This document shows positions 1 through 11,216 of a stretch of DNA of 11,216 nt, piece after piece. How positions within the stretch are numbered: the stretch's first letter is position 1; the number at the start of each line of letters is the position of its first letter. The translations under genes and the position numbers were made by a program. Origin of the DNA: a virus. The notes under the pieces were generated by a model. It searched no databases. It saw nothing but the letters and a program-made list of their open reading frames with translations, and was not told the DNA's origin. The stretch lies in UHGV virus genome UHGV-0117334. One strand, written 5' to 3'.

Positions 1-18
1 TGCGGTTACTCTGCTCAT
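1..18 (-). CDS. 5' end of an Rz-like i-spanin gene (only first ~6 codons in window; continues beyond the left edge)
   Basis: Minus-strand ATG at 16-18 overlaps the lysozyme stop (ATGA). Encoded start MSRVTA matches the N-terminus of lambda Rz as I recall it. Position downstream of holin and endolysin is canonical. Confidence 0.35.
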
Positions 19-515
19 TGCTGCCCCCACAAACAGACTTCACGCTCAATCTCACGGCGAGTCATCAGCCCTTTCCATTGCTTGCCGCCAGCATATGTCC
101 AGCGACGTAGTTGATCACATGCACCTTTGATATCGCCCTGGTTGATTTTGCGAAGAAGTGTCGATGTTCTGAAATTGCCTGCACCCACGTTGTAAACGAA
201 CGAGTAAAGAGCACCACGCGTTGTTTCCGGTATATCGACTTTGATGTACGGGTTAATTTGTCTGGCGACAGTAGCAAGGTCTTTATTCAGGAGAGCTTTG
301 CATTCTGCTTCGGTATACGTTTTACCGAGCATAATGTCTTTTCCTGTATGCCCGTAACATACAGTCCATACACCAACGATGTCTTTGTAGGGGTTATGTC
401 TCACACCTTCCAGACCATCGTTGCCGCTCGGACCAGAGATGAGCACAGATGCTATGGCAATAGCCCCGCCACCAATAGCAGTTGCGACAGCTTTGCGTAA
501 TGATGACTGCATCAT
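15..515 (-). CDS. SAR-type endolysin (T4-type / GH24 phage lysozyme)
   Basis: 166-aa ORF. N-terminal Gly/Ala-rich hydrophobic segment ([21 protein letters not shown]) is typical of a signal-anchor-release domain, followed by a GLEG...D...T lysozyme catalytic region. Closely resembles phage 21 R / E. coli RrrD-type lysozymes from memory. Start ATG overlaps the holin stop (ATGA at 512-515). Confidence 0.9.
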
Positions 516-784
516 ATTTCCTTCGGTGCTCTCTTTCCCAATTCACCAATAACCATCGCCGTGGCGGAAATATTATTGGCATCAGTTTTATCCAATATGT
601 CCTGCAATATCTTCGTGCGCTTCATCTGCTCGCGTTTATTGAGCCGGTATGTAAGTACACCGAGGATAATGCTGAACGCGACACCGATAATGAAGCCCCA
701 ATCCTGCAATGACAGGCTGGCAAAGAACGCAGTAAGACCAGCACTACCATAAGATGCGCTGCTGTATCGTTCATCCATCTTCAT
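512..784 (-). CDS. class II holin (S21-like pinholin candidate)
   Basis: 90-aa ORF directly upstream of and overlapping the endolysin. Two predicted TM helices ([10 protein letters not shown] and [16 protein letters not shown]), Met-Lys-Met dual-start motif, charged C-terminus. GAGGT Shine-Dalgarno 7 nt upstream of the ATG. Confidence 0.8.
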
Positions 785-879
785 ATCTCTTACCTCGCAA
801 TAGTTGCTGAGGTTTCGGCTTGGAAACTATACGGCGAGAAATAACCCCATCAAAAACGGCAGGGGAATATATTCTTCAG

Positions 880-2001
880 TTACTCAAATAACTTTTTCAC
901 TTCATCAACTGTCTGAAGATAACGTTCACCCTCAATCTCAATACCGATTGCCTGACGACCTAACTTCAGCGCGGCTTTAATAGTAGAGCCTGATCCCATA
1001 AAGAAATCGGCAACGATATCTCCGGGGCGGGAACTACTTTTTATAATATGTTCCATCATCGCTGCAGGTTTTTCACATGGGTGCTTGCCAGGATAATATT
1101 GCACAGGAGGAAACTCCCATACATCGGTATAAGGTACATCAGCAGTAACATGAAATGGGCGGCGCAAATTTTCATACTGAGCCTTCAAATCATCATACTG
1201 CTTCTTTACTTCCTCATAACGCAATTTCAGATCGCTATAACGCTTTTCATGTTCTGAATAATCAACATTAAAAGGATATGGACACGGGACACCGAGTGAA
1301 TCTGCCTTCCTGCGAAATAATTCGCATAGTTTATTAAAATCACTTAATGATGGAAGCCGCCACTGCGAATAAGAAAACCAGTGCGAACACATCTGCTTTC
1401 CTGTTGCTGAATTAATGTCTGCGGCTGATATATCTAACTGACGGCGAGCCAGCGAAAAAGCATCAATTAGTGGAGAAAAAATATTTTTTCTTAAATCTGC
1501 ACATTTTGAAGCATAACCTGACTGACCTTTAGCATAACCTGACGCGCCGTAATGCTCTGCAAATAATATTCTTTCAGTGGCAGGAAAATAAGCCCTTAAA
1601 CTTTCTTTATGACAACCGCGCCACATACCACTGGGTTTAGCCCAAATGATATGGTTCAGAACATTGAAACGGTCGCGAGTTAATAATTCAATTTTTGACG
1701 CAAGGCGAGAGCCGGTAAACATATACAGGCTGCCATTAGGGGCCAATATCCGCCAAAATTCTGCCAAAAATTCATCAATCCACCCCAAAAAGTCAGCATC
1801 GCTATCCCACTGGTTATCCCATGCGTTAGCCTTTACGCCGAAGTATGGTGGGTCTGTTGCAATCAAATTGACCGAGTTATCAGGGATGGTTTTGATAAAT
1901 TGCAGAGAATCTGCGCAAACGAGTTGCGCGCCATGAATATTAGTGGTTTTGAACATAGCTATTATTTTTTTGCCTGGGTAAGCTAACCCGGCGATGCGCA
2001 T
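880..2001 (-). CDS. orphan DNA methyltransferase, beta-class amino-MTase (N6-adenine or N4-cytosine)
   Basis: 373-aa ORF with DPPY catalytic motif near the N-terminus (LIATDPPYFG) and SAM-binding motif I near the C-terminus (DFFMGSGSTIKAA), the circularly permuted order of beta-class MTases. Carries a coiled-coil-like insert (EHEKRYSDLKLRYEEVKKQYDDLKAQYENLRR). No restriction endonuclease partner in the window. No obvious SD before ATG 2001; an alternative start exists at Met16 (~1956). Confidence 0.85.
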   Translation of the reverse strand: MRIAGLAYPGKKIIAMFKTTNIHGAQLVCADSLQFIKTIPDNSVNLIATDPPYFGVKANAWDNQWDSDADFLGWIDEFLAEFWRILAPNGSLYMFTGSRLASKIELLTRDRFNVLNHIIWAKPSGMWRGCHKESLRAYFPATERILFAEHYGASGYAKGQSGYASKCADLRKNIFSPLIDAFSLARRQLDISAADINSATGKQMCSHWFSYSQWRLPSLSDFNKLCELFRRKADSLGVPCPYPFNVDYSEHEKRYSDLKLRYEEVKKQYDDLKAQYENLRRPFHVTADVPYTDVWEFPPVQYYPGKHPCEKPAAMMEHIIKSSSRPGDIVADFFMGSGSTIKAALKLGRQAIGIEIEGERYLQTVDEVKKLFE

Positions 2002-2091
2002 CGCGGGTGGGCTTTAGGTTCAGCCTATAGCTCTGGCATGGGTTGACCGCAGGACAAGCTGCAACTTGTCCTGCGCCCACTTTTCAGGCAC

Positions 2092-2116
2092 AAAAAAACC
2101 GCCATAAAGGCGGCTT
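2092..2116 (-). terminator. rho-independent terminator candidate (minus strand)
   Basis: On the minus strand: GC stem CCGCC/GGCGG (with G-U closing pair), 5-nt loop, then a run of 7 U. Lies between the two-gene leftward operon (2704->2224) and the methyltransferase. Confidence 0.5.
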
Positions 2117-2201
2117 GTTGGCTGTTGGGTACAAAAAACCCAACTTAACAAAACAATAACTAAAAACCGTAATTTTGCCAAGCTTTTTCGTTTTTGTGCT
2201 G

Positions 2202-2219
2202 TGCGACCGTGGTCGCACA
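2202..2219. repeat. 18-bp palindrome TGCGACCGTGGTCGCACA, copy 1 of 3; SopB/ParB-type centromere-like site candidate
   Basis: Exact 18-mer shared with 6403-6420 (reverse orientation) and 8848-8865. Arms TGCGACC/GGTCGCA around a GT centre. Differs from the recalled F sopC SopB site TGGGACCACGGTCCCA by one base per arm. Intergenic, followed by TTTTT on the + strand. Confidence 0.6.
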
Positions 2220-2223
2220 GTTT

Positions 2224-2451
2224 TTAGAAAGTTGCCTGCTTATATTCATCGGTCAAAGAATATCGACCAGACCCGCTACGCTTTGCAACCCCAAAACAGA
2301 TCATCTGTTCGATGATAAATTCAACGGCAGCTTGACTCAAAAAACAGGCTTCGCTTAACTCTTTCAGGGAAATGCGTGGGTATCCACGCATAACACATTC
2401 CACACTCAGGGCCGCTTCAGTCATATTTCCACGAATTTCATTAATATTCAT
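2224..2451 (-). CDS. hypothetical small protein (75 aa), possible winged-helix DNA-binding fold
   Basis: ORF with GAGAGG SD-like sequence about 6 nt upstream of the ATG. Follows the upstream small gene closely (13-bp gap). No recognisable catalytic motif. Confidence 0.55.
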   Translation of the reverse strand: MNINEIRGNMTEAALSVECVMRGYPRISLKELSEACFLSQAAVEFIIEQMICFGVAKRSGSGRYSLTDEYKQATF

Positions 2452-2464
2452 AACGCCTCTCTAA

Positions 2465-2704
2465 TCAATCTTGAAACTGGAAATCAACATCAGCCATAAA
2501 GCGGTTCAACTCAGCCAGTTTTGGCCCCATAGTCCCAACTAAGCGACCAGCCAGTCGGTCTGCCAGGTTGGTACTGTTGAAACCATATTCCTTTTCGAAA
2601 CGTTCAACCTTCTGCCACAACTCATACAGTTCGTTAGCTATCTCCGCAACGTCGTCGCGCATTTTTTCGTTACCTTGATAATTCATAATATCCTCCAAAT
2701 TCAT
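2465..2704 (-). CDS. hypothetical small protein (79 aa as drawn; more likely 73 aa starting at the internal ATG 2686)
   Basis: ORF from the track. The internal ATG at 2684-2686 (Met7) is preceded by a strong GGAGG SD 5 nt upstream, whereas ATG 2704 has none. Divergent from the toxin-antitoxin operon. Confidence 0.55.
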   Translation of the reverse strand: MNLEDIMNYQGNEKMRDDVAEIANELYELWQKVERFEKEYGFNSTNLADRLAGRLVGTMGPKLAELNRFMADVDFQFQD

Positions 2705-2774
2705 ATAGTTAGTGGGTTATTGCCCCTCAATGACACGAACTGTAACTCTGCCAAACGAACACATCCAGTGTTAT

Positions 2775-2792
2775 TTTCACTTTTTAGTGAAA
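2775..2792. promoter_or_regulatory. palindromic operator candidate upstream of the toxin-antitoxin operon (TTTCACT-N4-AGTGAAA)
   Basis: Perfect 7-bp inverted repeat with a 4-bp T spacer, about 60 bp upstream of the toxin ATG in the divergent promoter region. Type II TA operons are typically autoregulated through such sites. Confidence 0.45.
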
Positions 2793-2850
2793 TTTTTAAT
2801 TTGCGCTTTTTTCTTGTTTTGGTGTATTTTATGGCTATGGAGGCTATAAT

Positions 2851-3174
2851 ATGTTTAACGTGATAACCCACCCTGCAGCACTGGATGAACTGCTTGAACT
2901 ACCAGATGATTTGCGAGGTCGCATGACCAGATTAATTGAGCGACTGGAGAAGGAAGGCAACAAACTGAAGATGCCCCATAGCCGTGTAATAGGTGGAGGG
3001 CTTTTTGAACTACGAGTAGGGGATAAAAACATCGCAAGAACGCTGTACGCCTACGCGACTGGTAACGAAATTTATCTATTGCATGCTTTTGTCGAAACAA
3101 CGAAATATAACAAACAGAAAACACCGGTGAAGGCTATCGAAATCGCCAGAACTCGCCTGAAGGAGATGAACTGA
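2851..3174 (+). CDS. type II toxin, Gp49-like / HigB-like (RelE/ParE superfamily)
   Basis: 107-aa ORF with the family hallmark pattern ...RTLYAYATGNEIYLLHAFVETTKYNKQKTPVKAIEIARTRL. GGAGG SD 7 nt upstream of the ATG. Stop overlaps the start of the downstream HTH gene (TGATG). Confidence 0.8.
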   Translation: MFNVITHPAALDELLELPDDLRGRMTRLIERLEKEGNKLKMPHSRVIGGGLFELRVGDKNIARTLYAYATGNEIYLLHAFVETTKYNKQKTPVKAIEIARTRLKEMN

Positions 3175-3461
3175 TGAAAGCGAAAGGCATCCCGTTTAAC
3201 GAAGTAAAAGAAAAACTTCTCAACACTCCAGAAGCCATCAAAGGATATGAAGAGGCCGATAAAGAGCTGGAGATGGTCGAAATGTTATACGAAATGAGGG
3301 AAAGAGCAGGTTTAACGAAGTCAGCTCTGGCTGAACGAATGGGATTGCGCCCGTCAGCTATCAGCCGCCTGGAAAGCAATCCTTTAGGGGCAAGCATGAA
3401 AACTTTATCAAAATATGCCCAAGCATGCGGTGCAACGATTAATATTAATGCCGTCTATTGA
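3174..3461 (+). CDS. XRE-family HTH antitoxin (HigA-like) partner of the upstream toxin
   Basis: 95-aa ORF translationally coupled to the toxin. Helix-turn-helix segment LTKSALAERMGLRPSAISRLE. Toxin-first gene order is typical of HigBA-type modules. Confidence 0.8.
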   Translation: MKAKGIPFNEVKEKLLNTPEAIKGYEEADKELEMVEMLYEMRERAGLTKSALAERMGLRPSAISRLESNPLGASMKTLSKYAQACGATININAVY

Positions 3462-3478
3462 TTAGACCCTTTTCGCTA

Positions 3479-3498
3479 CCCCGTCCAGAAGGGCGGGG
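3479..3498. terminator. hairpin between convergent genes (possible bidirectional terminator)
   Basis: CCCCGTCC-AGAA-GGGCGGGG stem-loop (8 bp with one G-U pair) between the end of the antitoxin (+) and the end of the 72-aa ORF (-). Flanking U-tracts are weak. Confidence 0.35.
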
Positions 3499-3504
3499 TG
3501 TGTA

Positions 3505-3723
3505 TCAATGATGCAAACACTCAACAGCAATAACTTGTTGGCAATTCTGAGCAATCTCCCGCGACATACTAACAAGTCGTGAAATCTCGCCAAGATGCAA
3601 GCTGGCTTCTGGAGAAGCCAGAGCAACGCTAACCAGATCCAAAACGGCGTCGATGTCTTTTAGGTTTGATCCGAGTTCTTCAAGAGTTGATACAGGTGCT
3701 TCAGTCATTGAATCTAATACCAT
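3505..3723 (-). CDS. hypothetical small acidic protein (72 aa); candidate SOS-controlled antirepressor
   Basis: ORF lies immediately downstream (minus strand) of a near-consensus LexA box and an operator-like sequence. No clear SD before the ATG, so the translation start is uncertain. Function inferred from context only. Confidence 0.4.
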   Translation of the reverse strand: MVLDSMTEAPVSTLEELGSNLKDIDAVLDLVSVALASPEASLHLGEISRLVSMSREIAQNCQQVIAVECLHH

Positions 3724-3747
3724 TTAATTAAAAAAGGTTATTTGATA

Positions 3748-3763
3748 CTGTATAAAATTACAG
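3748..3763. promoter_or_regulatory. LexA (SOS) box CTGT-N8-ACAG
   Basis: tACTGTATAAAATTACAGgg matches the E. coli LexA consensus TACTGTATATATATACAGTA at 16 of 20 positions, with an AT-rich 8-bp spacer. Sits 25-40 bp upstream of the minus-strand 72-aa ORF. Confidence 0.6.
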
Positions 3764-3773
3764 GGTAAAACTC

Positions 3774-3791
3774 AAATTTTATAGCCAACTT
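3774..3791. promoter_or_regulatory. operator-like sequence related to the repressor/cro operators
   Basis: AAATTTTATAGCCA is identical over 14 nt (16 of 18 over the extended site) to 7601-7618 in the repressor/cro intergenic operator region. Confidence 0.4.
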
Positions 3792-3964
3792 TCAATGGAT
3801 TAACTGGTTAAATATCTTTGTAGTCCGATACTTATGTTCCCTTCCTACGCCTCGCCCAACCACTTTCAAAAGCCCATCACCACCATCAGAAAAGCTCTTT
3901 TCGCTTCGTTTTCTCATCATTTCAAAAACTATGCCTTTTTGTTTATTTATCATTCCGTGACCAG

Positions 3965-4291
3965 TCACACTTTGAGCACAAGTTTCAGCCTCGTAGTTGT
4001 AAGGTGACATGAGCCTTCACCATCAAAAATACATTCTGAAACAGGCATTTTCTGACCACATCGCGGGCAAGTAGTAGATAGCTGCTTCTGCAGCTCCTTA
4101 TAGTTTTTCCTGATCAGCAGACCGATGACTTCATTCTCTGAATATGGAACTCGTCCCGGTCTACGCAATACACAAATTTCCCCCAACATACGTAGCTCGT
4201 CAGGTTCCAGAATCCAGTCCCGTCTTGATGTGCCTTCCTTCTTCAACCGTTCCCTGCGTCTCCTTTGCCGTTCTGCAGCTGTCAGCGCCAT
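3965..4291 (-). CDS. hypothetical protein with C-terminal Zn-ribbon (CPRC...C..C) and Arg/Lys-rich N-terminus
   Basis: 108-aa ORF with strong GGAGG SD 4 nt upstream of the ATG. Motif CPRCGQKMPVSECIFDGEGSCH. Last gene of the leftward early operon. Confidence 0.6.
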   Translation of the reverse strand: MALTAAERQRRRRERLKKEGTSRRDWILEPDELRMLGEICVLRRPGRVPYSENEVIGLLIRKNYKELQKQLSTTCPRCGQKMPVSECIFDGEGSCHLTTTRLKLVLKV

Positions 4292-4310
4292 AAATCCTCC
4301 TGAAAATTAC

Positions 4311-4865
4311 TTAACCCAATGCAGGAAGTGAAACAGAAAACTGAATATGACCATCCGGAGTTACCGGAGAGTTGCCAGCCTCATACGCGACCCTTATCCA
4401 GTGCATAAACATTTCAGTACTTACACATCCACAATCAACATCAATTTTGTCATGCTGCTGTTCCAGCCATTGCTCAAAAGTTAACTTGTAAGTTTGGCTT
4501 ACAGGTTTGGCTTCCAGTTCTGCTACGCGCTGTTTTGCAGCATCCAGTTCAATCGACAATTTTTCCAACTGCTCTTTATGCTTCTTGTATTCCTGATATG
4601 CGTGCCAGGACTGACCTTTGCGCACACTATCAGTAATATCAGTAATCTGTTCTGGTGTTAGCGTGGTCAGTGGCTGTGCTGGGAAAATCAGCACTTTCCC
4701 GGAATCCCAATCAAAACCAGCGTGAATTGACTGAACCTCAACTGAGGGTGTTGAACCAATGCTGCCAGGCGAATGAATAACGATTGTTACATCCATATCG
4801 CAACGCTGGCTGTGTTTGTTGGACAAGATACGATTCACCAACTCAGAAAATTTGGAAAATTTCAT
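4311..4865 (-). CDS. hypothetical protein (184 aa)
   Basis: ORF whose start overlaps the stop of the upstream gene (ATGA). Central coiled-coil-like segment (KEQLEKLSIELDAAKQRVAELEAK). No recognisable catalytic motif. Confidence 0.65.
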   Translation of the reverse strand: MKFSKFSELVNRILSNKHSQRCDMDVTIVIHSPGSIGSTPSVEVQSIHAGFDWDSGKVLIFPAQPLTTLTPEQITDITDSVRKGQSWHAYQEYKKHKEQLEKLSIELDAAKQRVAELEAKPVSQTYKLTFEQWLEQQHDKIDVDCGCVSTEMFMHWIRVAYEAGNSPVTPDGHIQFSVSLPALG

Positions 4866-5152
4866 GCTGATTCCCCTTTCTCTGCTCTCTCCTGTCGGAA
4901 CATCACTATCATCAGGTCGCCTTTTGTCGCTATCTTGGCTGTTGTGCCTGGCTCAATGCGGCTAAGTTCAAATGCGTCATAGAACGCCTCTAACACTTTC
5001 TGGCGTCTTTCCTGTTTGCGGTGCTTTCCCCACTGCTTTAGAAAAACAGAGGCCGCCCACTTCCCCGCACTGAACATGATGTAAAACCAACCGAGAAGTG
5101 CCAGACCGATATTTATGGCCGTATCGATCGTTATCGTGGTGTCGATATTCAC
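4862..5152 (-). CDS. hypothetical small membrane protein (96 aa)
   Basis: Start overlaps the upstream stop. One predicted N-terminal TM helix (INIGLALLGWFYIMFSAG) followed by a basic stretch. Confidence 0.55.
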   Translation of the reverse strand: MNIDTTITIDTAINIGLALLGWFYIMFSAGKWAASVFLKQWGKHRKQERRQKVLEAFYDAFELSRIEPGTTAKIATKGDLMIVMFRQERAEKGESA

Positions 5153-5571
5153 TACGCCACCTCCTGAAAATTTCCCTGATAAAAAGCCAGCACACGCTGC
5201 ATAACTTCACTTTTCCGGCAATCGTGACAAATCATGTTCAAGCGCCTGTCGTAACGACGTATTTCTCCGTCAGGTAATGACCAGATAAGGTCTGGATCAA
5301 CCACTACCGATGTCTTCGGCTTTACTCTTGATAGTTTTTTACGGGCGTTTTGCCAGTCCTTGCGTGCTTGTGCAGACAGAAATATCCCGGAGCCAGAGAT
5401 ATACAAATCACCACTGGCAGCAAGCTCTCTTGATAAACGACTAACAGCACACCGGCTAATACCAGTTTCATCCGCAAGTTGCCTAACCGTTCCTCGTCCA
5501 TTCAGGCGCACGAGTTCCACAATTTGTTTATTCAGTTCTTCCCTCTGTTCTGGTGTAAAAGCCTTTGCCAT
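5152..5571 (-). CDS. putative DNA-binding protein with (winged) helix-turn-helix
   Basis: 139-aa ORF; HTH-like segment GTVRQLADETGISRCAVSRLSREL. Start overlaps the exonuclease stop (TAATG), indicating translational coupling. Confidence 0.65.
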   Translation of the reverse strand: MAKAFTPEQREELNKQIVELVRLNGRGTVRQLADETGISRCAVSRLSRELAASGDLYISGSGIFLSAQARKDWQNARKKLSRVKPKTSVVVDPDLIWSLPDGEIRRYDRRLNMICHDCRKSEVMQRVLAFYQGNFQEVA

Positions 5572-6170
5572 TACGATTCTCCTTGCCCTTTTACAAGACG
5601 GGAGAAAATTGCTGATACATATTTATCCTGATGAATAGCATCAGCCAGGGCATTGTGTCGTTCGCCATCAAATGGCATATCTTTTTTAGGATTAAAACCA
5701 ATAAACTGACCAAGGTTAACGATTGTTCGAACATCCTGATCATTAAAATATTCCCACGGACAGGCTAAGCCAACGCGCTCATAAGCACCGCGTAAAATTA
5801 CATTATCGAACGTTGCTCCATTTCCCCATACTTTCAATTTTTTTAAATTACATGCATGGCAAGTAATAAAGTGTGATAATTCAAAAAGTGCATCCTTAAT
5901 ATCAAGGGCATCATTAGTACAAATTGCTGCTCTGGCTTCCTTGCTCTGTTTCAACCACCATAAAATGGTATCACCATCGGCGACACCACCATTCAACATC
6001 GAGCTTCTGAGATTCACTGGTACATAAAAAGTAGGACCTAATTCCTCACTTTCTGGAGAAAAAAACACTGCCCCGATAGAAACAATTGGAGCACATGTGT
6101 TAGTACCCATTGTTTCAAGGTCAATCATTACATCAGACCGTTTCCTGTCGTAAATAATCTGATTAGTCAC
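5571..6170 (-). CDS. DEDDh-family 3'-5' exonuclease (DnaQ-like fold)
   Basis: 199-aa ORF with Exo I motif MIDLETMG, an Exo II-like Asp (GATFDN) and Exo III motif H-x4-D (ERHNALADAIH). GTG start with GAGGAG SD 8 nt upstream. Confidence 0.8.
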   Translation of the reverse strand: MTNQIIYDRKRSDVMIDLETMGTNTCAPIVSIGAVFFSPESEELGPTFYVPVNLRSSMLNGGVADGDTILWWLKQSKEARAAICTNDALDIKDALFELSHFITCHACNLKKLKVWGNGATFDNVILRGAYERVGLACPWEYFNDQDVRTIVNLGQFIGFNPKKDMPFDGERHNALADAIHQDKYVSAIFSRLVKGQGES

Positions 6171-6193
6171 GAATAATTCTCCTCAACGTTTAT

Positions 6194-6397
6194 CTATACC
6201 CAAATTTTCTGTTGATATGTTCTGGATGGTTTTGGCGTTCTTTCTGATTCAGGTAAATGAACATAAACGCAATATCCATCACCTAAAAAATCAGAACGAA
6301 CAACCAGAACTTTCTTACCACGCCGCCGATAAGTATCTGAAAGACGCTCTGCTTCATCATGCGTCATCGGCCCCTGCTTAAATGGCGTTATTTTCAT
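6194..6397 (-). CDS. hypothetical small protein (67 aa from ATG 6397; track ORF extends to 6421 via a GTG inside the palindrome)
   Basis: ORF in the leftward operon. The 18-bp palindrome sits 6-23 nt upstream of the ATG, over the ribosome-binding region. Confidence 0.5.
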   Translation of the reverse strand: MKITPFKQGPMTHDEAERLSDTYRRRGKKVLVVRSDFLGDGYCVYVHLPESERTPKPSRTYQQKIWV

Positions 6398-6698
6398 TTT
6401 CTTGTGCGACCACGGTCGCACCCTCTCTGATTTCCAAGTAACGCTTAATCCAAAGATTTTCTATATGCTTATTACCTGGCTGATTTGATAAATACCAATC
6501 GGCAATTACAGACTGCTTATTACTATCTGGTCGTGTCCTGTAACCACAAGTTGGACACCAGATAACATATTCATTTCTTACCCCCGAATACCTTAATTCT
6601 GGCTTCGACGGTTTCCTGAACATAACTTGTTTACAAAGGCAGAATGGCACTTCCTGCCCGATGGCGTTTGATGATTTCACTGCGCTTCTCCGCCGCAT
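6378..6698 (-). CDS. hypothetical Zn-ribbon protein (CPTCGYR motif); start uncertain
   Basis: 106-aa ORF from the track. Its 5' 68 nt overlap the upstream 236-aa gene, and an internal ATG at 6623 would give 81 aa. The C-terminal residues ATVVAQ are encoded by the palindrome. Confidence 0.5.
   Translation of the reverse strand: MRRRSAVKSSNAIGQEVPFCLCKQVMFRKPSKPELRYSGVRNEYVIWCPTCGYRTRPDSNKQSVIADWYLSNQPGNKHIENLWIKRYLEIREGATVVAQENENNAI
6403..6420. repeat. 18-bp palindrome, copy 2 of 3 (reverse orientation); centromere-like site candidate
   Basis: TGTGCGACCACGGTCGCA on the + strand is the exact reverse complement of the 18-mer at 2202-2219 and 8848-8865. Overlaps the 3' end of the 106-aa ORF and the translation initiation region of the next gene. 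Confidence 0.6.
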
Positions 6699-7341
6699 TT
6701 AATAATGCAGTTCGATTTAAGCTCAGACATCGCGACTTAATTAAAAGCCAGCGTTCTTTATAATCTTGTCTCCAGCTATCAATAGATATATTCAGTAGAA
6801 AACTCAGATGCCTGTCCTGTTCTCTCTCATCAACTGCCTCAGCACACGTAAGTTCTGATTTAACCTGCTGTGCCGCGTAATAAATCAATTTCCGCATGGC
6901 TTTTTTCGTGGAGGCCTTCATTTTTTTAAAGCCGCCCCCCGAATGAGCAACCAGAAAATCAAGCCATAACCACTGACAAACAATCACATCATTGTTGTAA
7001 TCAGGCTTGCATCCGTAGCAATAATAAAGCCAGGCTGATTCCTCGTTATTCAACTGACCAATAGCCCTGCGCCAGCTGGCGCTCTGAAAATCAATATCAG
7101 TGAGCAACATTGATGATTGTTTAAATGTTTTCCCCTGGTGGAATCTAACCGGCTCAGCAGGAACGGACACTTCGTATGAGTTATCATCACCTACACTGAT
7201 TGACCGGACTGGTTTATTGTTAAAGCGTCCTGATCTGCCTAGACGCATCTGCTCAAGCTGGACCTCTAGGATGCCACGCTGGCGATAATGAATATCAGCC
7301 AATGCCGTGGATACGCAGCTGCGTATATACTCAAGCTCCAC
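6631..7341 (-). CDS. hypothetical protein (236 aa); Q-like late antiterminator candidate by position
   Basis: GTG start with AAGGAG SD about 10 nt upstream, immediately after cro. Several Cys residues (CYGC...C). Antiterminator role is inferred only from the cB-cro-Q gene order recalled for N15-like phages, not from a recognised motif. Confidence 0.6.
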   Translation of the reverse strand: MELEYIRSCVSTALADIHYRQRGILEVQLEQMRLGRSGRFNNKPVRSISVGDDNSYEVSVPAEPVRFHQGKTFKQSSMLLTDIDFQSASWRRAIGQLNNEESAWLYYCYGCKPDYNNDVIVCQWLWLDFLVAHSGGGFKKMKASTKKAMRKLIYYAAQQVKSELTCAEAVDEREQDRHLSFLLNISIDSWRQDYKERWLLIKSRCLSLNRTALLNAAEKRSEIIKRHRAGSAILPL

Positions 7342-7579
7342 GCTTACGGCTCTCCTTAATCGACTGCTTTACCCGCCGAGTTGTAAAGTCACTCTTCAGC
7401 TTGTAAGCAGTACGAACTTCAATATCACTTTGCCGCAATGAAGGAATCTCTCCAGCGGTTAACCATTGGTAAACAGCACCGGGTGTTACACCTACCCCAG
7501 CCGCTGCTTTTTCTACACTGCCAAAGTGGCGAATAAGTTCTTCTGGTTTCATGCGGTTATTATAAGCAATAAATCGCAT
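7331..7579 (-). CDS. cro: Cro-like HTH regulator
   Basis: 82-aa ORF divergent from the repressor. HTH segment FGSVEKAAAGVGVTPGAVYQWL is typical of Cro/YdaS-type proteins. An alternative start at ATG 7552 (MKPEEL...) lies just downstream of a TATAAT-like hexamer. Confidence 0.75.
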   Translation of the reverse strand: MRFIAYNNRMKPEELIRHFGSVEKAAAGVGVTPGAVYQWLTAGEIPSLRQSDIEVRTAYKLKSDFTTRRVKQSIKESRKRGA

Positions 7580-7580
7580 T

Positions 7581-7620
7581 TAAAGCCAGCTATAATAAAT
7601 AAATTTTATAGCCAGCTATA
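7581..7620. promoter_or_regulatory. operator region: two 14-bp palindromes TA(A/T)AGC-CA-GCTATA between divergent repressor and cro genes
   Basis: TAAAGCCAGCTATA (7581-7594) and TATAGCCAGCTATA (7607-7620) are spaced 26 bp centre to centre in the 64-bp intergenic region; the second ends 23 bp before the repressor ATG. Confidence 0.6.
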
Positions 7621-7643
7621 AGAAGATCATTTATGATTAAGCT

Positions 7644-8240
7644 ATGAAAACACGAGGCGAACGACTGAAAGCACGCCGTTTAGAGATGAAGCTGACGTTG
7701 CGAGAAGTTGCTGAGGCTGTCGATATCTCTATTGCAGGCGTCCAAAACTTAGAACGTGGCGACGTAATGCCGTCACTGGAGATAGGTATTGCCCTGGCTA
7801 AGTGCTTACGCAAGCCAGTGCATTGGGTGCTATATGGGACAGAATATGACCCTGATCGCATTCCTGTTATTGGCACAACTGAAAGTGGGCCGGATGAAGA
7901 GTGGAAGCCGGGACAGGTTCCAAATACTGAGCGATTCCTGCCATTCATCAGCCAGCGCAATACTGTGTATGCGTTAACTATCAGCAATCTTACGCAGGGA
8001 AACTATCAGCCAGGCGATTTTCTCCTGGTCGATTCTGCGCTGGAACTGGTCCCCGGCGAGGATGTTCTGGTTCGTGATACTGCAGGAAATATCACTATCC
8101 AGCGCCTGGCCCGTTTTGATGATGAAAATTACTATCTGGATGGAACAAACTCACAACGCGCCATCTTCAGGAAAAGCGATCTTGAATTTGTTCACCAAAT
8201 AGTCGGAACGATCAAATCATTCATGGTTGAGGGTAGATGA
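7644..8240 (+). CDS. phage repressor, CI/CB-type (N-terminal XRE HTH, C-terminal beta-rich domain)
   Basis: 198-aa ORF. HTH segment LTLREVAEAVDISIAGVQNLERG. The C-terminal domain resembles the oligomerisation / peptidase-like domain of CI/LexA-type repressors, but I could not pick out a clear Ser-Lys catalytic dyad by eye. No SD before the ATG, so it may be translated from a leaderless or short-leader mRNA. Confidence 0.85.
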   Translation: MKTRGERLKARRLEMKLTLREVAEAVDISIAGVQNLERGDVMPSLEIGIALAKCLRKPVHWVLYGTEYDPDRIPVIGTTESGPDEEWKPGQVPNTERFLPFISQRNTVYALTISNLTQGNYQPGDFLLVDSALELVPGEDVLVRDTAGNITIQRLARFDDENYYLDGTNSQRAIFRKSDLEFVHQIVGTIKSFMVEGR

Positions 8241-8341
8241 CTTAATACGGGGTTTATTGTTTGCTGTAAATCTGGTTTAATGCAGGGCATATGTTCTGTG
8301 GGTTGACTCAGGTTACAGCAGCAGAAAAAAGACGAAAAAAA

Positions 8342-8370
8342 ACCCGAGTCGGCAAACTCGGGTCCTTTTC
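8342..8370 (+). terminator. rho-independent terminator downstream of the repressor gene
   Basis: A-tract, then 8-bp stem ACCCGAGT/ACTCGGGT with 6-nt loop, then CCTTTTC. Located about 100 bp after the repressor stop. Confidence 0.6.
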
Positions 8371-8485
8371 AGGAAGCAGCCACAACAACGCGACAGATTC
8401 CGTCAATTCAAGATGCGTTTATTGTGGCTGCTCCTGCGGATTTTTTCAACCCGAAAAAACATAATTCGCATGGAATGGCTAAAAA

Positions 8486-11020
8486 ATGACATTAAACGAT
8501 TTCTATGCGGATCGCTTTGGCAGCGATCCGTTCTCGCTAATTGAAGCAGCACGGGATGAAATAACCGAGCTGGCACAGATGGCTGGTATCAACTGGCCTG
8601 CCTGTTCCGACAACATCCAACTCAACCCTCGCGGGGGGGGTGAGCGTTACTCTTCATACAATAAAACATCTCCAGAAGCTCTCGAAAAGAGCCTGAAAGG
8701 ACGCGTAGAAATTTACTCCAGGCTGGAACACAGCAAAGGGATTGATTACCCGTTCATTAACTTCGTCCATAAAGGCAGCGATGCTGGCTCATGGAGCGGT
8801 TTCTCCTTCCTGTTTTCTGAATATCGCCGTGAGCAACAACGGAATAATGCGACCGTGGTCGCACAACCGGAAGAAGAACGGGCAAGAATAGAACGTCAGG
8901 CCGAAGCACGTCGTCGCCGTGAAGAACAAAAACGAATTAATGACCTGAAAAACAACCAAATGGACCATGAACGTTTGCTGGGATGGCTGGCATTCCACAG
9001 TGCTTGGGAACATGCTCCTGCAGAAGACGGCTCATGGCCATATGCGATTAAAAAAGGTATTCGTGACGTTTTTAATTCGTGTGATGTGCGTCGCGTGACC
9101 AGTCACGACAGCGCAAAATGGAGCAGGGGGCCAACCACGTATATGGCTATCCCTCTGGCTCACCTGGACGGTCGTTACGATGGTCGTATTGTTGGTTGGC
9201 AGAGAATCGACAAACAAGGTGGAAAATACCAGACCAGCGCCGTAACCAGCGGCGATTTCGTCGGTGCCTGCTTTGTTATCGGTGAGCTGAAAGGGGCGCA
9301 AAACATCGCTGTTACAGAAGGTTTTGCTACTGGTGCATCCATCTGGCTTGCCACGAAAAAAGATAAACGCTTTGACGCTGTGGTTGTCGCTGTATCCGCT
9401 AACAACATGGTTCATGTTGTGGAACAACTGGTAAACATGTACCCGGCGGCAAAAATCACCTGCGCACTGGATAATGACCGGAAATCAGCTACAGAAGGAA
9501 AAGGGAATACCGGCCTGCGGACTGGCTATGAAATCTTATCGAAATTCAACGATGTCCGCTGCGTCTATCCAACTTTTGAAGACGATCCGCAAATGGAGTG
9601 CAGTGACTTCAACGACCTGCACAAACTACGTGGACTTCGTGAAACAGCACGTCAACTGTTTGCAACTGCAAACCGCCTGAAAACTGGCACTGATTTGCTA
9701 TCTCTGACGCTCAACCGCCTGAAGACAATTAAGCGGGATAACCGTCGTACTTTTGCCAAAGAGCTGCTGAGAGCGGTGGATATTGGCATGCTAACCTGTC
9801 CGGTTCCTAACAGTCCGTCAGACTTATTTAACATGTTCTGCATCGTTCTGCGTGAAATGGGGCTGGAAAATATCTATCGCGCTACGGTAAAAGACCACAT
9901 TGCCCGTCGCCTGAATAAAAAGTGCCGTATTGCCCAGGCTCCGCGCTCATTCAGCGAACGCATAACTGATCCCAATAAACGTCCTCAACATATCACCTAT
10001 AAGCGTTTTGAAACTTCGGTAATGACCGATGACGTCCTGAAGTACGTGCAATCACTACAGGGGATAGTCATCGTCCGTGCTGGTATGGGTTCCGGCAAAT
10101 CTACTGGATTGTTACGACCGTTAATGCATAGCTCAGAACGTGGTATCTCTGTTGCTCACCGTGTCTCCCTTATTGGTGGCCTGTGGGAAATGATGACAGA
10201 AGGAAAAGGTGTAAAAGCCGATATCCTGCACTATCAGGACCCTGGCTATCAGGAAATGGCTCCATACGCCAGTAAACTGACCATCTGCATAAACTCGATT
10301 GTTAAAAACTGCTGGCAACCGTTGATGCGCCAGCACGACTATTTTGGCTTTGACGAGGCCACACAAGGGCTACGTGCCGTTCTTTCCGGTCGGGCTATGG
10401 AAAACCCGGTGGCTGTATTCCATACGCTAATTGACGCGCTGGCCAGAACGGAACAACACCCAATCATGGTGGATGCTGATGCGAACGATCTGCTGGTTGA
10501 CCTGGCTGAACTGGCTATGAAACGCCGTGAAGAACTAGGTTTACCGGCATGGCTGCAGATCCACGTAATTGAATTACCTGTTGATGTTCGCAACCGCGAA
10601 ACAGGTGAGCCAATCCGGGTTTTTTATACAGAAAAAGATCGCATTATGACCGAGGTGGTGAAAGCTGTATCGGATGGCGAAAAAATCATGTTGGCCACCG
10701 ACAGCTCCACCTTTGCAGAAGATGTGACAGCCACCCTGAGAATGCATTTTCCTGGTAAGAAATTTCTGTGTGTAAACCAGAAAAGTAAACAGGATGAAGA
10801 AGTCGATGCCTTTACCAACCAGCCAAAAGTAATGGTGATGAAATACGATGGACTGATCTACAGTCCGTCAATTTCCTCCGGGGTGTCATTTGAGAAAAAA
10901 CATTTTGACCGTCATTTCGGCATGTTCTGCGGTGAAGTTGTGCCCAGCGACGCAGTGCAAATGCTACGCCGCGACCGTACAGCAAAAGAATTTATTATCG
11001 GCTTTGAAAGATACGGATAA
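8486..11020 (+). CDS. repA: replication protein: Toprim-type primase fused to a P-loop helicase (RepA-like primase-helicase)
   Basis: 844-aa ORF. Toprim motifs (IAVTEGFATGASI with catalytic Glu; CALDNDRK DxD motif). Walker A (GMGSGKST) and Walker B-like (YFGFDEATQG) in the C-terminal half. Same strand as and downstream of the repressor, as recalled for repA in N15-like phage-plasmids. Gene symbol is by architecture only. Confidence 0.85.
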   Translation: MTLNDFYADRFGSDPFSLIEAARDEITELAQMAGINWPACSDNIQLNPRGGGERYSSYNKTSPEALEKSLKGRVEIYSRLEHSKGIDYPFINFVHKGSDAGSWSGFSFLFSEYRREQQRNNATVVAQPEEERARIERQAEARRRREEQKRINDLKNNQMDHERLLGWLAFHSAWEHAPAEDGSWPYAIKKGIRDVFNSCDVRRVTSHDSAKWSRGPTTYMAIPLAHLDGRYDGRIVGWQRIDKQGGKYQTSAVTSGDFVGACFVIGELKGAQNIAVTEGFATGASIWLATKKDKRFDAVVVAVSANNMVHVVEQLVNMYPAAKITCALDNDRKSATEGKGNTGLRTGYEILSKFNDVRCVYPTFEDDPQMECSDFNDLHKLRGLRETARQLFATANRLKTGTDLLSLTLNRLKTIKRDNRRTFAKELLRAVDIGMLTCPVPNSPSDLFNMFCIVLREMGLENIYRATVKDHIARRLNKKCRIAQAPRSFSERITDPNKRPQHITYKRFETSVMTDDVLKYVQSLQGIVIVRAGMGSGKSTGLLRPLMHSSERGISVAHRVSLIGGLWEMMTEGKGVKADILHYQDPGYQEMAPYASKLTICINSIVKNCWQPLMRQHDYFGFDEATQGLRAVLSGRAMENPVAVFHTLIDALARTEQHPIMVDADANDLLVDLAELAMKRREELGLPAWLQIHVIELPVDVRNRETGEPIRVFYTEKDRIMTEVVKAVSDGEKIMLATDSSTFAEDVTATLRMHFPGKKFLCVNQKSKQDEEVDAFTNQPKVMVMKYDGLIYSPSISSGVSFEKKHFDRHFGMFCGEVVPSDAVQMLRRDRTAKEFIIGFERYG
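8848..8865. repeat. 18-bp palindrome, copy 3 of 3, inside the primase-helicase coding sequence
   Basis: TGCGACCGTGGTCGCACA identical to 2202-2219. Encodes the residues ATVVAQ of the replication protein. Confidence 0.6.
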
Positions 11021-11021
11021 G

Positions 11022-11216
11022 GGATACCGTAATGCGGCTTTGAACTTCGCTTCGGGTTTCGCTGATCAAAATGTTTATATCGAGGTCATGAAACACATGT
11101 TAAAGGCGAAGCCGGAAGTCAAGGTGGATATCTTGAACTGGATAGGCCGTGAAAGCAAATGCCCGTCTAAACATGACGTGATCAAGAATCTGGAACTTCG
11201 TTTTGATCTACCAGCG
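11022..11216 (+). CDS. open reading frame in the +1 frame relative to repA, running off the window end; either a frameshifted C-terminal continuation of the replication protein or a separate downstream gene
   Basis: This frame is open from 10857 to 11216 with no stop, overlapping the last 164 nt of repA. Both frames look protein-like. First in-frame ATG is at 11088. Confidence 0.4.

Follow-up and report, generated by a model that had tools for sequence, protein, structure and literature searches.

Why does the replication gene repA of an N15-like element stop after 844 codons, and why does a second reading frame remain open across that stop up to the last nucleotide of the DNA? This question is raised by the 3' end of the window, by which we denote the entire stretch of 11,216 nucleotides analysed here. 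Our inspection of the reading frames confirms the observation itself, which had been made before in a sequence-only reading: the repA ORF occupies positions 8486–11020 of the plus strand, encodes 844 aa and is closed by a TAA, and the frame in which position mod 3 equals 0 has its final stop at 10854–10856 and is then open for 120 codons (10857–11216) up to the window end, which is likewise the end of the contig. Both peptides quoted in that reading are correct, that is, ...AKEFIIGFERYG* for the end of the 844-aa ORF and ...KGYRNAALNFASGFADQNVYIEV... for the second frame. Since the chance probability of a 120-codon open stretch is only ∼0.0015 at this base composition, the second frame exceeds chance expectation and demands an explanation. 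It had been proposed that a single-nucleotide indel separates two parts of one RepA, that repA is a pseudogene, that a separate gene starts downstream, or that an error of sequencing or assembly is involved. The evidence collected here leads to an answer of the last kind: with a probability of roughly 0.87, the contig end is an in-silico chimera, created by the assembler from an N15-like phage and the gut bacterium Parabacteroides distasonis. Neither a frameshift nor a pseudogenised repA nor a further gene downstream is thus involved; the contig end is not a biological feature and holds no biological novelty. The features on which this assignment rests are collected in Table 1.

Table 1. Features at the 3' end of the window, with strand and the evidence for each.
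Feature	Position	Strand	Evidence
5' part of N15-type repA, codons 1–840	8486–11007	+	Identity to YDC107_1; Pfam
Alternative frame within repA, open by chance	10857–10985	+	43 codons, P ∼0.1
Exact 22-mer AAGAATTTATTATCGGCTTTGA, native to both parents	10986–11007		Phage identity through 11007; Parabacteroides identity from 10986
Internal fragment of a P. distasonis chromosomal gene (1155-aa protein)	11008–11216 (209 nt)	+	DNA identity; BLASTP
TAA closing the 844-aa ORF	11018–11020	+	Direct reading of the sequence; three-way alignment
ATG suggested as start of a downstream gene	11088–11090	+	Alignment numbering: internal Met339 of the Parabacteroides protein

RepA of the N15 type is a replication protein acting as primase, helicase and origin-binding protein, and RepA of N15 (gp37), Gp35 of phiKO2 and RepA of YDC107_1 are multifunctional proteins of this kind comprising ∼1320–1330 aa. 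The earlier statement that RepA proteins of N15-like elements are about 1300 aa long is borne out by RepA of phage YDC107_1 (1327 aa, AUO37518.1, encoded by 3984 nt at CP025712.1:28021–32004) and by uncut phage relatives, in which the repA frame exhibits 1328–1348 open codons; the 844-aa ORF is thus truncated. Positions 1–11007 of the window are colinear with the Ravinvirus (N15-like) Escherichia phages YDC107_1 and PhiR46_1 at 97–98% identity. For the region 8400–11007, the ungapped alignment with YDC107_1 reveals 2559 identical positions out of 2608 (98.1%). The genes follow each other in the order lysozyme, holin, DNA methylase, a Gp49/HTH pair, several small ORFs, exonuclease, Q antiterminator, cro, cB-like repressor and repA, so that repA is located downstream of a cB-like repressor gene as it is in N15. 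The identity to the phage breaks off exactly at position 11007, and from 11008 onwards it is at background level in every register. Where the window departs to ERYG and the stop, RepA of YDC107_1 proceeds with ...IIGFDKARAK..., the continuation of phage repA beyond 11007 being ...GATAAAGCTCGTGC...; the gene following repA in YDC107_1 is a gp36-like gene 3 kb further on.

Up to the point of departure, the gene resembles an intact repA. Pfam profiles applied to the 844-aa product yield a match to Herpes_ori_bp (28.3 bits, cutoff 20; region ∼521–674) and one to Toprim_3 which is slightly under the cutoff (25.3 versus 27.2 bits; Toprim-like region at residues 274–383), and the same two matches are obtained for full-length RepA of YDC107_1. 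Both the N-terminal Toprim region and the central helicase/origin-binding region of an N15-type RepA are therefore found in the window. In contrast, the full length of ∼1320–1330 aa including the C-terminal part is not reached: with only codons 1–840 being present, ∼487 C-terminal residues are absent when compared with the RepA proteins of N15, phiKO2 and YDC107_1, which is a property of the contig and not of the phage. Residues 1–840 are colinear with RepA of YDC107_1, and the 840 shared codons exhibit 41 synonymous versus 7 non-synonymous codon differences (and thus 7 amino-acid differences) and not a single indel. This pattern of substitutions is that expected of an intact gene kept under selection and speaks against a decaying pseudogene, so that pseudogenisation, offered before as one explanation of the early stop, finds no support. 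The repA gene of the real phage is probably intact, with ∼1327 codons, and the contig leaves it at codon 840.

The DNA which follows belongs to another organism. Positions 10986–11216 are identical to P. distasonis NM39_I3 at 231 of 231 positions, and to the P. distasonis record NZ_OY725779.1 at 226 of 231. They encode residues 305–381 (77 codons) of an 1155-aa protein in the gene's own frame, which is the frame with position mod 3 equal to 0 described above. Consistently, a BLASTP comparison aligns the second-frame peptide with residues 298–381 of the P. distasonis protein (E = 2e-52). This protein, WP_009275971.1, is annotated as ‘family 16 glycoside hydrolase’ and comprises, according to Pfam, HEAT repeats and two 3-keto-disaccharide hydrolase/DUF1080 domains. 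Its 1155-aa ORF is intact in NM39_I3, and the gene is chromosomal, with SusD, arylsulfatase and oxidoreductase genes as neighbours. The window peptide differs from the protein of strain TSDC17.2-1.1 in a single amino acid (V/M) and represents a 77-codon internal piece, devoid of start, stop and promoter. The match to NZ_OY725779.1 came from a plasmid collection, in which the record resembles a chromosomal contig labelled as plasmid. A search of 50,697 phage records in distant mode retrieved no DNA match for the tail 10990–11216, and a near-mode search of complete E. coli genomes was equally without a match, which rules out both a mosaic module of phages and an insertion from E. coli. The Pfam search with the second-frame peptide yielded no match, a result that is uninformative by itself. 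Base composition does not help to tell the two parts apart either, the G+C content amounting to 45.3% for the phage-derived part and to 44.5% for the tail.

These two parentages bear directly on the idea that a one-nucleotide indel near 11015–11022, either real or resulting from a sequencing error, has split RepA. Such a frameshift would account for an ORF of 844 aa where relatives have ∼1327 aa and for a second frame which is open across the stop. However, (i) the best match of the second-frame peptide to the 1327-aa RepA in BLASTP has E = 36, (ii) the phage DNA identity does not resume in any register beyond 11007, (iii) the DNA downstream is 100% identical to P. distasonis, and (iv) all relatives possess one continuous repA frame. 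When the two frames are compared with RepA, as had been recommended in order to locate a switch of frame, homology to RepA simply ends at 11007 and the second frame contains none. A split or pseudogenised repA is therefore exceedingly improbable. The locus resembles cases of programmed frameshifting, or of indel pseudogenes, in phage replication genes only in that an ORF ends under an open overlapping frame; in contrast to such cases, its second frame is devoid of homology, no slippery site is implied, and the DNA downstream is that of another phylum.

We likewise give next to no credence to an independent gene starting at the ATG of Table 1 in a phage whose RepA would naturally comprise only ∼844 aa. 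There is indeed an ATG in the open frame at this position, but it corresponds to an internal methionine of the 1155-aa Parabacteroides protein, and the frame is open already upstream of it. Moreover, DNA resembling the tail is found in none of the phage records searched, and the closest phages encode a RepA of 1327 aa followed by gp36-like genes. Homologues with an intact protein of ∼844 aa, accompanied by a conserved gene in the second frame, had been named as the finding that would refute the idea of a split repA; the relatives exhibit one continuous repA frame instead. Insertion of an IS element, an intron or a homing endonuclease gene into repA was considered as well and rejected, since the foreign DNA lacks an element end; it is colinear with the Parabacteroides chromosome and comes from the interior of a polysaccharide-utilisation gene of housekeeping type.

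The place at which one parent gives way to the other can be located precisely. Since the match to the phage extends to 11007 and that to Parabacteroides starts at 10986, the crossover lies inside the 22 nucleotides common to both. The 22-mer was found in YDC107_1 and in 13 stretches of 12 IMG/VR contigs on the one hand, and in four Parabacteroides records (three species genomes and NZ_OY725779.1) on the other. In both parents it lies within a long continuous reading frame, with the repA frame of uncut phages running through it and the Parabacteroides frame passing through it within 1159 open codons. The 15 occurrences in phages are all flanked by phage sequence on either side (58–60 of 60 positions on the left, with the right at background level), and the four in Parabacteroides are all flanked by Parabacteroides sequence on either side; among the 22-mer occurrences scanned, hybrid flanks are found in this contig only. 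In exact-match searches of finite collections, patterns of 47 nt and 36 nt spanning the hybrid junction were absent from IMG/VR, from the JGI metagenome contigs and from the GTDB species genomes (0 matches), and the reciprocal junction was absent from IMG/VR, the one collection scanned for it.

Knowledge of the crossover also explains how the deceptive arrangement of frames came about. The second frame consists of two parts. Codons 44–120 (10986–11216) are the Parabacteroides gene, and the 43 codons before them lie inside repA, in an alternative frame which is open there by chance; in all true phage relatives this same frame is open for 63 codons only. Because the repA-internal stretch shares its phase with the Parabacteroides frame by coincidence, the ‘second ORF’ appears longer than the foreign fragment. 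Conversely, the last four residues of the 844-aa ORF (E-R-Y-G) are a wrong-frame translation of Parabacteroides DNA, and the TAA which closes it is not a stop codon of repA: it is an out-of-frame triplet of the Parabacteroides gene, in which GAT AAG is read as ..A TAA G... 

Could phage and bacterial DNA have been joined in nature? A real recombinant molecule, in which N15-like phage DNA became connected with a P. distasonis gene across phyla via the 22-bp microhomology, has in its favour that a microhomology of this length could plausibly serve illegitimate recombination, and it would constitute a very recent cross-phylum DNA joint in the sampled community. Several findings make it highly improbable, however. 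Each side is 98–100% identical to its own parent, without amelioration, and the junction was not encountered in any other assembly scanned. The contig has a coverage of 2.3x and ends one read length past the junction, and the length of the microhomology coincides with k+1 for the smallest default k of the assembler. Moreover, no route is known by which a plasmid-prophage of Enterobacteriaceae with the host range of N15-like phages could enter Bacteroidota.

The properties of the contig point to the computer instead. When the 844-aa product was looked up by exact match, one contig from one sample was retrieved, ena:ERZ1742538:NODE_916_length_11216_cov_2.327390, and the window is identical to this entire contig, NODE_916 of ENA assembly ERZ1742538 (11,216 bp). 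Its k-mer coverage, given in the contig name as 2.33, is as low as fits a low-coverage chimera, and the contig stops 209 nt past the shared string, i.e., after about one Illumina read. The name follows the NODE_length_cov pattern with the stated length being the real number of bases, which is the SPAdes convention. The default k values of SPAdes and metaSPAdes are 21, 33 and 55, the smallest thus being 21. The assembler, its version and the k-mer set used for ERZ1742538 are accordingly deduced from the contig name together with these defaults, and the type of sample is deduced as well; a literature search for the accession ERZ1742538 found no mention of it. The breakpoint lies in an exact string of 22 nt, which is longer than the smallest k if the default of 21 was used.

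We propose the following course of events. Positions 1–11007, from the lysis genes through cB into repA, are genuine DNA of a Ravinvirus-like linear plasmid-prophage of Escherichia, and positions 10986–11216 are genuine P. distasonis chromosome, and by chance the 22-base string is common to the two genomes. If k = 21 was used to build the de Bruijn graph, this 22-mer would amount to one edge and two vertices common to both genomes, where the phage and Parabacteroides paths would merge; at k = 33 or 55 the two paths would stay separate. Since the shared length is 22, merging of the paths is expected at the k = 21 stage only. With a coverage of ∼2.3x, neither read pairs nor coverage would have indicated the right exit, and the assembler may have taken the Parabacteroides branch and come to a halt about one read later. 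As multi-k SPAdes presumably reuses the k = 21 contigs as pseudo-reads at larger k, the join could persist into the final contigs. The outcome is of a purely formal nature: repA is cut after codon 840 and continues with four codons of nonsense followed by a TAA in the wrong frame, and the Parabacteroides frame mimics a ‘+1 ORF’. It is the chimeric join which accounts for the shortfall of RepA at 844 aa. Intergenomic assembly errors have been described to arise where repeats shared between species coincide with low coverage (metaSPAdes paper, PMC5411777), and species of low coverage are those most likely to enter chimeric contigs, with filtering below ∼10x having been advised (PMC7881036).

A chimeric molecule or read generated in the laboratory, by template switching at the 22-bp microhomology during library PCR or whole-genome amplification, would leave the same picture, and the contig end is an artefact in either case. 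A crossover inside an exactly shared 22-mer is what template switching would produce as well, the coverage is so low that one read could be enough to determine the path, the foreign tail of 209–231 nt is about one read long, and the junction is unique to this contig. Nonetheless, 22 nt equals k+1 for k = 21 and merges the paths without any hybrid read, so that a hybrid molecule is needless, and PCR chimeras mostly arise from templates that are close relatives and have far longer homologous stretches in common. We thus consider a laboratory chimera unlikely and infer that the join originated in the k = 21 stage of the assembler rather than in a chimeric read; that the contig end is an artefact of one kind or another, chimeric reads included, is nearly certain. 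Of the explanations put forward in the sequence-only reading, the one invoking sequencing or assembly error thereby stands in part: the error is most probably one of assembly, yet it consists in a chimeric join between genomes and not in an indel.

The contig shares the hallmarks of inter-genome chimeric contigs known from metagenome assemblers that build de Bruijn graphs from short reads (SPAdes/metaSPAdes, MEGAHIT), that is, flanks which are 98–100% identical to different organisms, a switch within an exact string of about the smallest k, very low coverage, and a short misjoined tip. The biological significance of the contig end is nil, and its practical value is that of a warning. Before annotation, NODE_916 of ERZ1742538 should be trimmed at 10985/11007. 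If left untrimmed, it gives rise to a false ‘truncated RepA’ along with a false orphan ORF, and to a false link between the phage and a Bacteroidota host or a false call of an ‘auxiliary glycoside hydrolase’. Screening the ends of low-coverage contigs for a sudden switch of parentage would weed out such false findings.

The string at which the two genomes meet here is no conserved repeat between species of the rRNA or IS-element type but a 22-mer which two unrelated protein-coding genes have in common by chance. The contig illustrates cleanly how a k+1-mer shared in this way generates a chimeric tip at low coverage. For a phage of 46.7 kb compared with one genome of 5 Mb, the expected number of shared 22-mers is only ∼0.03. 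For the same phage compared with 0.5–2 Gb of distinct metagenome sequence, however, it rises to ∼3–10, and collisions of this type are therefore to be expected in a gut sample.

The three copies of an 18-bp palindrome found in the window resemble sopC-like centromere sites, which are dispersed along N15-type linear plasmid-prophages (see the table). The copy at 8847-8864 lies within the replication gene repA, and is matched exactly by a site in phiKO2 gene 35 that is annotated as a 'putative plasmid partitioning site'. Such sites are already known from these elements, and on this reading the palindromes would be an anticipated feature. The two neighbouring ORFs encoding Gp49 and HTH_31/HTH_3 proteins, which are located on the strand opposite to that of the surrounding genes, resemble a plasmid-prophage-borne toxin-antitoxin pair of the HigB/HigA type. 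The N15-like Escherichia phage YDC107_1 has this pair too.

Features of the window
Feature	Position	Strand	Remark
18-bp palindrome RTGCGACCNNGGTCGCAC, three copies	2201-2218, 6404-6421, 8847-8864		
Two neighbouring ORFs: Pfam Gp49, 107 aa; HTH_31/HTH_3, 95 aa	2851-3461	+	
Left contig end	1-14 and 15-512	-	start maps to YDC107_1 position 19360
Patch of loosened colinearity	3852-4319		gp47/gp46-like small-ORF region

In comparison with YDC107_1, the contig starts within the phage's 'bacteriophage lysis family protein' gene, immediately downstream of the lysozyme gene. Its left end is a simple contig break, and nothing there points to another chimeric join. Colinearity with YDC107_1 is loosened in a sole patch, where identity is 93.8% (across 3869-4319) and the flanking blocks are separated by ~88 bp less in the window than in the phage, which probably reflects ordinary phage mosaicism or an indel.

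One of the Parabacteroides distasonis records that match the contig's tail (NZ_OY725779.1; 375 kb) is designated 'plasmid 34' of strain TSDC17.2-1.1 and is entered in PLSDB as a circular plasmid. It carries the chromosomal housekeeping genes murB, upp and HU as well as a polysaccharide-utilisation locus, and is probably a chromosomal contig wrongly labelled as a plasmid.

Finally, two of the IMG/VR stretches carrying the 22-mer common to phage repA and the P. distasonis gene (L009 and L010) come from a single viral contig, 3300045988_113976 (56,122 bp), on which the 22-mer occurs twice, on opposite strands. An N15-like contig with an inverted repA duplicate could have been assembled head-to-head, across either a hairpin telomere or a replication intermediate, or could be another misassembly.
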